Translations under genes and position numbers: made by a program
DNA from: Escherichia coli
Lineage (GTDB): Bacteria; Pseudomonadota; Gammaproteobacteria; Enterobacterales; Enterobacteriaceae
Assembly (NCBI RefSeq): GCF_045037415.1
Contig: NZ_CP173438.1
Length of the DNA: 64,000 nt
Direction: 5' to 3' (one strand)
In this document: piece by piece, positions 59,514 to 63,562 of the stretch
How positions within the stretch are numbered: the stretch's first letter is position 1
Layout of the letters: every line of letters begins with the position of its first letter
The notes under the pieces: model-generated
Told to the model about the DNA's origin: nothing
Database searches by the model: none
Seen by the model: the letters and a program-made list of their open reading frames with translations, nothing else

Positions 59514-61664
59514 TTAACGCCGCCGACGGCGTGGGGATTTCGTTTTTTCTTTCTTTTTAACTATACCTTCAGGGACTTCCGGTTGCTCTATCGGAAATAC
59601 CGGTAATGCATCCAGTAGTCGCTTGCCATAATTTTTTGTCAGCAAGCGTTTGTCGTAGATAACCACTTCCCCCCAGCAACCGTGGCTTCGAATCAGTCGC
59701 CCAACCTGCTGAATCAGGTTAAACGAAGCGCTCGGCAGGCTTTGCACCTCAAACGGATAGCGGTTAAGGCTTTTCAGCCATTCACCTTCGGTGATCACCA
59801 CCGGACTGTCGATGGGCGGAAAAGCGATTTTGTGGATATGCACCTGGCTGAGCAGAGCGCCTTTCAGATCAAGACCTTCGGCAAAGGACTGTAAGCCCAC
59901 CAGCACGCTACGCTCACCGTTGGCAACGCGTTTGCGGTGCAGTTCAACTAAGCGATAACGTGGCTGATCGCCCTGCACCAGCAACATCAGGCGTAAATCC
60001 GTCACATAGTCGAGAAAGCGCTGCATCGCACGCCCGCTGGCAAACAGCACCAACATACCGAGATGTTTTTTGCTCTCCACCTGCTCACGGAAAAAGGCCG
60101 CCATTTCAGCAATGTGCTGTTCTTCGTTGTCGATGGAAGGCTCAACGCGCATCCGGGGAATAACAATTTTGCCCTGTTCGCAGTGGTTAAAGGGCGAATC
60201 CAGCGCCACAAAGCGGTCACCCGCTTTCTCTTTCAGCCCACTCATCTCCTGCAAACGCGAAAAACTGTTCAGCGAACGCAAGGTTGCGGAGGTAACAATA
60301 ATGTGCGGAATACTGCGCCACAGCAGCCTTTCCAGTTGGTCGCTAACACGAATACCCACACAGTGAAACCACAGATGTAGCTGCCCTTCGCGCTCTTCCC
60401 GCGTCGCCCATTTGGTCACCGGCGCACCGGAAGATTGCGCCAGAGACGCCAGCCGCCAGAGTTTGCTTTGCGCCTCGAACATCCCCAACGCGCGGTTCAT
60501 CTGCAAAATCAACCGATGCAGGCGTACAATGTCATGGCTGCCGGTTTTCTCACTTAAATCGTTAAGAAATAACTCCGCCAGACCACGCAGCATCTCGGTG
60601 AGTTTTGCCAGCCGCTGGCAGATCTCCAGCACTTCATCAGGCAGTTCGCCCATCGCAAAACGGTGCTCTGCCTCCTGCCCGGCAGGCATGTAGAGATTGA
60701 GAATGTTGTTTAACGAGGCGATAAGCTCATACAGCTCTTCACAATGCGCATTCAAACGTTCAGGGATCGCCAGCGGTGGGATGGTCTTCGGGCGAAACTG
60801 CTCCATGCAGGTGGCGACCAGTTTGGTGAACAGGTCCAGTTGGAGCCGGTACCAGGGCGCAGTGATTTCGGCGCTCATCTCCAGCGCATCCCGCGCCACA
60901 TCCGGCAGGTGATGACCTTCGTCCAGCACCAGCAGTAAATTTTTCGGGTCAGGCAATACCGCTTCGCTTTCCATTGCCGCCATCACCAGCGCATGGTTTG
61001 CCACCACCACTTCCGCTTCCTGAATTTCCCGACGAGCGACAAAAAACGGGCATTCGCGATAGTAGTAACAGTTGCGGTTGAGGCAGCTGGCTTTGTCGGT
61101 ACTCAAACGACGCCAGAGATCATCATCTATAGCGATATCAGTATGATCGCGCAGGCCATCCCATTTATAAGTGTCGAGATCGCCCTTCAGCTTCGCACAA
61201 CGTTTTTGCTCTTCCTGATTGTTCGGCGTCAGTTCGTCGTCAAGAAACGCCAGCAGATCCTGTTGCGTGGGCTCAGTGCTGGCGAGCGCTGTCAGATTAC
61301 GCGGGCAAACGTAGCGCCCACGCCCAAAAGCGGCAGTGAATTTAAGATCGGGAATGATCTTTTTCAGCAGCGGTAAATCTTTGCTGTAGATCTGATCCTG
61401 CAATGCCACGTTGGCGGTACTTACCACCAGCGTTTTTTGCTCTTCGCGGGCAATGGCGATGCCGGGGATCAAATAGGAGAGCGTTTTCCCAACGCCGGTA
61501 GGAGCTTCAATCGCCAGATGCCGCCCTTCTTCTCCGGCCAGCGTTTTGGCGACGTCCGCAATCATCTGCCGCTGCGGCGCACGGGGAATAAAGTCGGGGA
61601 TCTGTTCCTGAAGCGCCTTATACCAGGCGGCAATTTGCGCTTTAAGCGCGGCGGTTAATGCCAT
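59514..61664 (-). CDS. dinG: ATP-dependent DNA helicase DinG
   Basis: ORF track 716 aa; Walker A APTGVGKT, DEAH box (LDEGHH), Fe-S cysteines, basic C-terminal tail. Confidence 0.97.
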   Translation of the reverse strand: MALTAALKAQIAAWYKALQEQIPDFIPRAPQRQMIADVAKTLAGEEGRHLAIEAPTGVGKTLSYLIPGIAIAREEQKTLVVSTANVALQDQIYSKDLPLLKKIIPDLKFTAAFGRGRYVCPRNLTALASTEPTQQDLLAFLDDELTPNNQEEQKRCAKLKGDLDTYKWDGLRDHTDIAIDDDLWRRLSTDKASCLNRNCYYYRECPFFVARREIQEAEVVVANHALVMAAMESEAVLPDPKNLLLVLDEGHHLPDVARDALEMSAEITAPWYRLQLDLFTKLVATCMEQFRPKTIPPLAIPERLNAHCEELYELIASLNNILNLYMPAGQEAEHRFAMGELPDEVLEICQRLAKLTEMLRGLAELFLNDLSEKTGSHDIVRLHRLILQMNRALGMFEAQSKLWRLASLAQSSGAPVTKWATREEREGQLHLWFHCVGIRVSDQLERLLWRSIPHIIVTSATLRSLNSFSRLQEMSGLKEKAGDRFVALDSPFNHCEQGKIVIPRMRVEPSIDNEEQHIAEMAAFFREQVESKKHLGMLVLFASGRAMQRFLDYVTDLRLMLLVQGDQPRYRLVELHRKRVANGERSVLVGLQSFAEGLDLKGALLSQVHIHKIAFPPIDSPVVITEGEWLKSLNRYPFEVQSLPSASFNLIQQVGRLIRSHGCWGEVVIYDKRLLTKNYGKRLLDALPVFPIEQPEVPEGIVKKKEKTKSPRRRRR

Positions 61665-61678
61665 GAGAAAACCTGAAA

Positions 61679-61698
61679 TACTGTATAAACAGCCAATA
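61679..61698. promoter_or_regulatory. LexA box (SOS operator) of dinG
   Basis: Plus strand TACTGTATAAACAGCCAATA; reverse complement TATTGGCTGTTTATACAGTA is the asymmetric dinG operator as I recall it; 15-34 bp upstream of the dinG ATG. Confidence 0.8.
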
Positions 61699-61770
61699 TT
61701 GTGGCATTTTTCGGTTTTCAGGGGTAATGGTTTTTCTGTTTCTGGAAAGCGGCTCGCAATAACCAGCAGG

Positions 61771-61968
61771 ATGATGCGTAAAGCGCTTCGCGCTAAATTC
61801 GAACAACATGCAGAACTGCGTACACTCTTGCTGGCAACCGCGTCCGCAAAACTGGTTGAGCATACGCAAAATGATGCTTACTGGGGAGATGGCGGTAATG
61901 GTCAGGGCAAGAATCGCCTGGGGTACCTTTTAATGGCGTTGCGCGGACAATTGGCTGCGGAGAAGTAA
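61771..61968 (+). pseudogene. ybiA: ybiA (NADAR/DUF1768 N-glycosidase) C-terminal remnant; N-terminal ~95 codons absent
   Basis: Frame encodes MMRKALRAKFEQHAELRTLLLATASAKLVEHTQNDAYWGDGGNGQGKNRLGYLLMALRGQLAAEK, which looks like the C-terminal third of a NADAR domain; no N-terminal NADAR sequence in any frame between dinG and this point; the 101-aa ORF from 61663 would span the dinG start and LexA box; could alternatively be annotated as a short CDS. Confidence 0.6.
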
Positions 61969-62051
61969 CGCATCGGGTGGCTTGTGGGCGTTAAAACAGA
62001 GAAATCTTTTTGCCGCGCTCGCAAATGGCTGACAAGTGCTTGTTGTGAAAT

Positions 62052-62150
62052 GCCGGATGCGGCGCGAGCGCCTTATCCGGCCTACAAAAACATGCACATT
62101 CAATATATTGCAGAGTTCACGTAGGCCTGATAAGCGTAGCGTATCAGGCA
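62052..62150. repeat. Composite REP/BIME-type extragenic repeat (second copy)
   Basis: GCCGGATGCGGCGCGAGCGCCTTATCCGGCCTAC ... ATTCAATATATTG ... AGGCCTGATAAGCGTAGCGTATCAGGCA; same architecture and orientation as the 37257-37355 copy. Confidence 0.8.
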
Positions 62151-62173
62151 GTTTTGTGTTTGTCATCAGTCTC

Positions 62174-62194
62174 ATGCCGGGCATAGCCCGGCAT
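62174..62194 (-). terminator. Stem-loop downstream of rhlE (probable terminator)
   Basis: ATGCCGGGCATAGCCCGGCAT palindrome 7 bp past the rhlE stop. Confidence 0.45.
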
Positions 62195-62200
62195 AAAAGA

Positions 62201-63562
62201 TTACTGCGCAGCGGCAGGTTTACGCGGACGGCGGCGACGTTGTTGTTCGCCTGCCGGTTTGGCATCGCCGAGACGACGAGACGGTTTTTCTGCGGGCTTC
62301 GCGTTACCAGACTTCGCACCACTTTCCGCACGGCGTGGTTGCTGTTGACCGCGACCACCGCCCTGTCCACGACCGCCGCCACGTTGCTGGCGACCGTTTT
62401 GGATCGGTTCGGCTTTGATTGACGGGTCCGGCTCATAGCCCAGAATCGCAATGCGCGGGATCTCTTTTTTCAGCAGTTTTTCGATATCACGCAGCAGTTT
62501 GTGTTCATCAACACACACCAGCGACAATGCTTCGCCAGTTGCCGCCGCACGGCCAGTACGCCCGATACGGTGAACATAATCTTCCGGTACGTTTGGTAAC
62601 TCATAGTTGACGACGTGCGGCAACTCTTCGATATCCAGACCACGCGCAGCGATGTCAGTTGCCACCAGTACACGAATATCGCCCGATTTAAAATCGGCCA
62701 GCGCACGAGTACGCGCACCTTGCGATTTATTACCGTGGATCGCCGCACTACGGATGCCATCTTTATTAAGCTGTTCAGCCAGATGGTTAGCGCCATGTTT
62801 GGTACGGGTAAACACCAGCACCTGCTGCCAGTTCCCTTTCCCAATCATATGCGACAGCAATTCGCGTTTGCGTTTCTTATCGACAAAGTGAACGTGCTGG
62901 GTCACCTGATCAGACGCAGTATTGCGGCGTGCCACTTCGATTTCCAGCGGGTTGTGCAACAGTTTTTCCGCCAGGGCTTTAATATCGTCAGAGAAGGTCG
63001 CGGAGAACAACAGGTTCTGGCGCTTCGCTGGCAGTTTTGTTAACACGCGACGGATATCGTGGATAAAGCCCATGTCGAGCATGCGGTCAGCTTCATCAAG
63101 GACGAGGATTTCAACCTGATCCAGCTTCACTGCATTTTGATGTTCCAGGTCCAGCAGACGTCCCGGCGTTGCCACCAGCACATCAACGCCGCCGCGCAGC
63201 TTCATCATCTGCGGGTTAATGCTGACACCGCCAAACACCACCAGCGAACGAATGTTCAGGTATTTGCTGTAATCACGGACGTTTTCGCCAATCTGCGCCG
63301 CCAGTTCACGGGTCGGGGTAAGAATGAGCGCACGCACCGGACGACGCCCTTTGGCGTGCGGCTGGCGAGTGATCAGGTGTTGCAACAGCGGCAGCGTAAA
63401 GCCCGCTGTTTTACCTGTACCGGTCTGGGCGCTGGCCATCAGGTCGCGGCCTTCCAGCACCGCAGGGATCGCCTGCTGCTGAATAGGGGTGGGTTCACGG
63501 TAACCCTGCTCGGCAACGGCGCGCAGGATATCAGGGCTTAAACCCAAAGAATCGAAAGACAT
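62201..63562 (-). CDS. rhlE: ATP-dependent RNA helicase RhlE (DEAD-box)
   Basis: ORF track 453 aa; Q-motif PTPIQ, Walker [24 protein letters not shown]; Arg/Gly-rich basic C-terminal tail. Confidence 0.96.

Follow-up and report, generated by a model that had tools for sequence, protein, structure and literature searches.

In the 64-kb stretch of DNA analysed here (hereafter the window), the spacer next to dinG holds a short open reading frame whose translation resembles only the end of a NADAR protein. The locus thus raises the questions of what became of ybiA, the gene expected at this place, whether its loss concerns one strain only, and whether the remaining frame could still serve a function. 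The evidence below makes it highly probable that ybiA is here a pseudogene created by one 298-bp deletion, and that this allele has a single origin and is common to an E. coli lineage and Escherichia albertii via recombination.

The ybiA remnant and the deletion junction

The window is E. coli chromosome in reversed orientation relative to K-12, with the gene order hcxB, ybiB, dinG, a 536-bp spacer, rhlE and cecR. Both genes bordering the spacer lie on the minus strand and are intact according to the list of open reading frames and the RefSeq annotation, which for dinG is that of identical DNA: dinG (59514..61664) encodes an ATP-dependent DNA helicase of 716 aa, and rhlE (62201..63562) an ATP-dependent RNA helicase of 453 aa. 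The ybiA remnant occupies 61771..61968 on the plus strand, from an ATG-ATG at 61771 to a TAA at 61966-61968. Its 65 codons plus stop correspond to YbiA residues 96-160 by family models, and PGAP places a pseudogene over the same span. It is separated from the dinG start codon by 106 nt, close to the roughly 107 bp first given. In K-12, ybiA (b0798; N-glycosidase YbiA, NADAR/DUF1768, PDB 2B3W) lies at the same locus in the same orientation, divergent from dinG across a 119-bp spacer and convergent with rhlE. It is 483 bp long and encodes 160 aa, as the initial annotation had stated. Downstream of the remnant, the ybiA-rhlE spacer (61969..62200) carries REP-type elements, with sub-threshold Rfam matches at 62015-62128 to naRNA4 (RF02564) and ES036 (RF02751), both REP-derived families, and a terminator hairpin for rhlE was read from the sequence at 62175..62193.

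The remnant was then compared with family models. It matches Pfam NADAR (PF08719) at positions 88-162 of 163 only (E=4e-18), E. coli YbiA in PDB 2B3W at residues 96-160 (E=4e-32), and NCBIfam TIGR02464 at positions 84-152 of 153 with 64.6 bits, below the curated cut-off of 73.7 bits; K-12 YbiA scores 169.5. The frame, previously described as about 65 residues from the C-terminal end of a NADAR protein, is therefore confirmed as a partial C-terminal match, which reaches neither the whole domain nor the curated score. Over residues 96-160 it is 86% identical to K-12 YbiA (56/65). The longer frame of 101 aa (61663..61968) was discarded as a mechanical ORF, its first 36 codons being a translation of the dinG-ybiA spacer.

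We asked which functional residues the remnant retains, using the ADP-ribose-contacting residues reported for the P. nicotianae NADAR of the YbiA subfamily (PMC11543638) and an alignment of its structure, 8BAU, with YbiA. E48, K55, R79, W89 and K93 fall in the deleted part, whereas E125, D130 and W133, the C-terminal signature of the YbiA subfamily, are kept (...KLVEHTQNDAYWG...). The missing N-terminal E48 and K55 correspond to E88 and K95 of the E. coli C7 NADAR, and this Glu/Lys pair is described as catalytic and conserved across the NADAR superfamily (PMC11543638). Because more than half of the NADAR fold is gone together with the conserved catalytic pair, knowledge of the family suggests that the stub would be unable to act as an N-glycosidase or as an ADP-ribosyl-guanine hydrolase. 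It is thus reasonable to suppose that YbiA activity has been lost.

Pairwise and multiple alignments show that the window is not collinear with K-12 and differs by a single gap of 298 bp, located at 61766..61770, which is shorter than the 350-400 bp originally estimated. Its left end lies 15 bp ahead of the ybiA ATG and its right end within codon 95-96, so that the window lacks the last 15 bp of the leader and codons 1-95, while 104 of the 119 K-12 spacer bases are kept with zero differences. The absence of any N-terminal NADAR sequence, also claimed at the outset, holds for the whole 64-kb window, in which neither the 95 N-terminal residues of YbiA (best tblastn E=3.2) nor the deleted 298 bp of K-12 (best blastn E=0.18) were found. 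The junction reads ...TAACCA(C/G)CA|GGATGATG..., with a 2-bp CA overlap. At position 61766, G is a SNP of the E. coli deletion copies, C being present in E. albertii and K-12. A GTG to ATG change at 61771 makes the junction ATG-ATG and opens a clean 65-codon ORF. The CA overlap looks like the signature of an illegitimate, microhomology-mediated deletion. We propose that one such event, by illegitimate recombination or replication slippage, took the end of the leader and codons 1-95 and spared codons 96-160, the downstream REP-containing spacer and the entire dinG control region. It would have occurred once.

The dinG control region and the contents of the dinG-rhlE slot

We next examined the DNA on the dinG side of the junction. 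The LexA (SOS) box of dinG, TATTGGCTGTTTATACAGTA on the minus strand at 61679..61698, is the only exact match in the window and is identical to that of K-12, as the initial annotation had noted. Read on the plus strand, this 20-mer (TACTGTATAAACAGCCAATA) is the dinG SOS box of PMC3009722 in reverse complement, and it sits 15-34 nt upstream of the dinG ATG. The only published assignment of a ybiA promoter that our literature search returned is a genomic SELEX study (Shimada et al. 2014, PMC3946193), which gives CTGAAA-18-TATTGT for ybiA and ATGCCA-16-TACAGT for dinG, as predictions and not as mapped start sites. Both sets of hexamers are intact in the window, the predicted sigma-70 promoter of ybiA at 61673..61702 on the plus strand and that of dinG at 61680..61707 on the minus strand, and both overlap the LexA box. 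Since our consensus scans of the window spacer and of K-12 for promoters and terminators returned nothing, the statement that the promoters are retained follows the published prediction. The initial annotation had the deletion removing both the ybiA promoter and the catalytic N-terminus. The second half of this claim stands, as codons 1-95 with E48 and K55 are gone; the first is not supported, since the predicted promoter is intact and the demonstrable loss is that of the start codon and the DNA immediately upstream of it.

The whole dinG-ybiA spacer up to the junction (61665..61765) is an invariant block, with 0/101 differences from K-12 and the same sequence in O157, in a strain with the toxin-antitoxin allele described below, in E. 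albertii and in Escherichia sp. MOD1-EC7003. Of 5,426 complete E. coli genomes, 4,967 carry 61665-61759 with an identity of 99% or more. The identity extends somewhat further, as 61633-61765 is without differences across E. coli lineages, E. albertii and MOD1-EC7003, although weakly constrained DNA in the vicinity shows 8-11% divergence. Only about 35 bp of the block are accounted for by the LexA box together with the two promoters; the remaining ~58 bp hold an 11-codon ORF from the ATG at 61727 to the TAA at 61762 (MVFLFLESGSQ). No Rfam family was found in the dinG-ybiA spacer, and the predicted folding of the block as RNA was not significant on either strand (z -0.5 to -1.3).

To place the deletion among other arrangements of the locus, we surveyed 5,426 complete E. 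coli genomes, among which the dinG-rhlE spacer proved to be a polymorphic slot that can hold at least four different contents. The K-12-type 298 bp, i.e. the N-terminal part of ybiA, is present in 3,429 genomes, and the identical 298-bp deletion junction in 1,119 (~21%). An espX2 type III effector island of the O157:H7 type occupies the spacer in 541 genomes and a RelE/ParE toxin with its partner gene in 241, leaving about 96 unclassified by subtraction. About 37% of complete E. coli genomes thus lack the N-terminal part of ybiA. All the left breakpoints lie within 10 bp of each other at the right edge of the invariant block, at 61759 for the espX2 island, 61763 for the toxin-antitoxin pair and 61766-61768 for the deletion. 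Both cassettes share the invariant block up to their breakpoints, replace ybiA and the REP spacer completely, and resume at the rhlE stop or terminator (about 62175-62200); the window, unlike them, keeps the 3' end of ybiA and the spacer. In a search for flanking repeats as a sign of site-specific insertion, the two cassettes gave only short chance matches and showed no integrase-type features. The simplest reading is that only rearrangements sparing the dinG control region survive selection, and the invariant block may also serve as the left anchor for recombinational exchange of the DNA up to rhlE.

The ybiA of Escherichia sp. MOD1-EC7003 is inactivated at the same locus too, but by an independent event. 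There (L016:7838-7972), ybiA retains its first ~13 codons, and a REP-like element of ~130 bp, a duplicate of the REP in the ybiA-rhlE spacer, stands in place of codons ~14-107.

The initial annotation had stated the loss of YbiA for this strain; the survey and the sharing of the junction with E. albertii show that it is not confined to it. Carriers of the junction include EC958 (O25b:H4-ST131), APEC O18, an O2:K1:H4 APEC strain, and O2:H6 and O25:H1 strains, lineages that we assign, through a few named strains, to phylogroup B2. A large E. coli lineage is fixed for the deletion allele, and on this assignment its named members would be B2. RefSeq/PGAP already annotates the span as a pseudogene, 'NADAR family protein' or 'NADAR domain-containing protein', incomplete and missing the N-terminus. 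In strain SK1144, the pseudogene DAECLI1_RS16265 has DNA identical to the window over 1,001 bp and a span equal to 61771..61968, i.e. it is the same allele without any difference, and in the ST131 strain EC958 the same span is annotated in this way. A search of the available literature found no paper treating ybiA as a pseudogene in B2. The stub is thus an ordinary, lineage-wide and already annotated pseudogene; the present analysis adds its distribution among genomes and its exchange with E. albertii.

Sharing of the deletion allele with Escherichia albertii

To see how far the allele extends beyond E. coli, we searched for the dinG LexA box in a single genome of each species. Four of the loci obtained are from Escherichia, namely from the E. 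albertii type strain, MOD1-EC7003 and two divergent genomes labelled E. coli; the others, on two Flavobacterium contigs, resemble chance matches. The E. albertii genome NBRC 107761 shares with the window the junction, the 536-bp spacer with its 65-codon stub, and nearly all of the stub substitutions. Three more E. albertii assemblies (including GCA_000155105.1; TW07627 is among the set), chosen by their possession of its RhlE protein, are identical to it; the E. albertii sample, four assemblies that all encode one RhlE, is narrow. The E. albertii copies differ from the window at 12 of the 536 spacer positions, one being the C instead of G at 61766 and three making up an inverted terminator loop. 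The latter, 62183-62185 within TGCCGGGC-ATA-GCCCGGCA, reads TAT in E. albertii, which looks like a hairpin-loop inversion counted as three substitutions.

The distances along the locus are discordant. At the dinG 5' end, the window differs from K-12 by 2.7% and from E. albertii by 5.6%, and at rhlE by 2.8% and 6.5%. The order is reversed in between, where the ybiA stub differs from K-12 by 9.9% but from E. albertii by 1.8%, and the ybiA-rhlE spacer by 8.0% and 3.4%, respectively. Overall, the tract is about 2% from E. albertii, as against 8-10% from the full-length alleles of E. coli. At sites that distinguish the two species, the window is of the E. coli type up to 61632 and once more from 62254 onward. 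Sliding identity, distances, trees and informative sites together delimit a tract of discordant history of at most 61633..62253 and at least 61771..62185. A recurrent, identical deletion in the two species was excluded, because the copies share nearly all substitutions as well as the junction. Since the tract is near-identical to that of E. albertii while the flanking genes are E. coli-like, the deletion allele appears to have crossed the boundary between E. coli and E. albertii by homologous recombination, in a tract of ~420-620 bp. One end of the exchanged DNA would have had its anchor in the invariant dinG promoter block, the other in the rhlE 3' end.

Further differences were observed on the rhlE side of the tract. 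The rhlE 3' end (62201-62400) is a mosaic of E. coli-like and E. albertii-like sites, with 62294, 62307 and 62328 being E. albertii-like. It encodes an Arg/Gly/Gln-rich tail of RhlE, and the protein varies in length (453 aa in the window, 454 in K-12 and 447 in E. albertii). Beyond rhlE, the cecR/ybiH frame of E. albertii (L012:8075-8734) has 219 aa, with 215-227 aa on other E. albertii contigs, and appears to be without a short in-frame stretch near the N-terminal helix-turn-helix when compared with cecR of the window (63791 onward).

The direction of the transfer is a separate question. We give even odds to the possibility that the deletion arose in E. albertii, or in another non-coli Escherichia, and was imported into the ancestor of E. 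coli B2. The remnant and spacer of the E. coli deletion copy are 8-10% from other E. coli alleles, as far as the alleles of other Escherichia species are from these. Moreover, at 9 of the 21 sites that set the deletion allele apart from all three full-length E. coli alleles, its state is shared with MOD1-EC7003 and/or SCPM-O-B-8794, two genomes in which rhlE differs by 6.5-7% from the compared E. coli copies. However, the window and K-12 already differ by ~11% at synonymous sites (18 such changes over 665 bp of dinG), so a native, neutral B2 segment could look alike, and the shared states could be ancestral if B2 branches first within E. coli. The sampled E. albertii copies moreover show no diversity by which a nesting could be judged.

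The reverse course, in which the deletion arose on the E. coli B2 stem and was exported to E. albertii, is a serious possibility, which we put somewhat below an even chance. The sliding identity, the distances and trees and the informative sites apply to it equally. The divergence between K-12 and E. albertii in the tract, 8.5-10.5%, is near the neutral ~11% within E. coli and well below a rough between-species synonymous estimate of ~0.25, derived from a coding divergence of 5.6-6.9%. Yet spacers with REP elements in other Escherichia species likewise reach no more than 8.5-11% divergence from K-12, so the tract is no clean neutral clock. The two E. coli variants form a clade to the exclusion of the E. 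albertii copy, which also counts against an export.

Fate of the stub and consequences of the loss

A single-origin deletion allele exchanged between the species leaves the question of whether its stub is simply a pseudogene. The stub is homologous to part of a gene whose intact form occupies the syntenic position in relatives, and the native start codon and translation signals are lost (-15 to codon 95). An AGG abuts its first ATG and lies 3 nt from the second, and because of this poor spacing, which provides no proper ribosome-binding site, efficient translation is unlikely. The stub may still be transcribed from the retained, LexA-overlapping predicted ybiA promoter. Non-synonymous and synonymous changes number 9:6 in the stub compared with 4:12 between full-length alleles (Fisher p=0.07), which is no more than suggestive of relaxed constraint. 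Some of these changes are older than the allele or shared beyond it, and many that at first seemed private are common to E. albertii or MOD1-EC7003, so that the counts fall short of a proof of neutral decay. For the same reason, we dropped an earlier reading of 15 'private' stub substitutions as neutral decay within B2, most of them being common to E. albertii and MOD1-EC7003.

One could instead suppose that the loss of YbiA was selected rather than neutral and that the dinG-rhlE spacer behaves as an exchangeable cassette. In that case, the ybiA-deleted cassette would have passed between E. albertii and the ancestor of the B2 lineage of extraintestinal-pathogenic E. coli and then become fixed, and other lineages would have shed ybiA independently via the RelE/ParE pair, the espX2 island or a REP element. 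Taken jointly, we consider these three propositions improbable. A still weaker variant has the stub produced as an SOS-induced micro-protein.

It is very unlikely that the stub is a functional, SOS-inducible small protein under selection, of 65 aa or in the 101-aa frame, made from the junction ATG and the LexA-overlapping promoter. The predicted promoter is intact, the stub ORF runs without a break not only in the window but also in a second E. coli variant and in E. albertii, and gene callers predict a product of 64-65 aa in E. albertii assemblies. However, with only 0.6-2% divergence among the copies, an intact 65-codon ORF is expected by chance. In addition, the stub is without usable Shine-Dalgarno spacing, the 101-aa frame would have to be transcribed from a promoter within dinG, folding of half a domain is improbable, and replacements are frequent, with 7 stub residues differing from all full-length E. 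coli alleles compared. PGAP likewise calls the stub a pseudogene. Finally, that the junction is a sequencing or assembly artefact, or a private mutation of one isolate, is excluded, because it is found identically in 1,119 independent complete genomes from many laboratories as well as in the four E. albertii assemblies.

We also considered whether another NADAR gene could make up for the loss. The paper that describes K-12-type ybiA as lying 'consistently' in the dinG neighbourhood also reports a second, sigma-70-linked NADAR (PMC11125620). The latter sits between rpoD and mug and encodes 187 aa (L011:4740-5303 in E. coli GN03551). It occurs in only 63 of the 5,426 genomes, including E2348/69, SMS-3-5 and the stub-carrying Rb-23, and because of this rarity at least 94% of stub carriers are without it; in the stub-carrying Z135-2, for example, the rpsU-mug segment is uninterrupted. 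Compensation by this gene was therefore rejected as a general explanation. In a survey that left out DarT1-linked and prophage NADARs, no other NADAR gene was found for stub carriers. Some RefSeq records give the name 'ybiA' to the rpoD-linked NADAR, which can mislead surveys of gene presence.

As a dead gene, the remnant carries little mechanistic weight in itself. Its allele, common to E. coli and E. albertii, offers a small and clean case of recombination between species, with a highly conserved promoter block as the boundary. Work on YbiA, including riboflavin damage control, swarming and the reversal of guanine ADP-ribosylation, uses K-12, and ~21% of complete E. coli genomes, among them ST131- and ST95-type lineages, carry the stub instead. 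The description of ybiA as 'consistently' next to dinG (PMC11125620) needs to be qualified by these genome counts.
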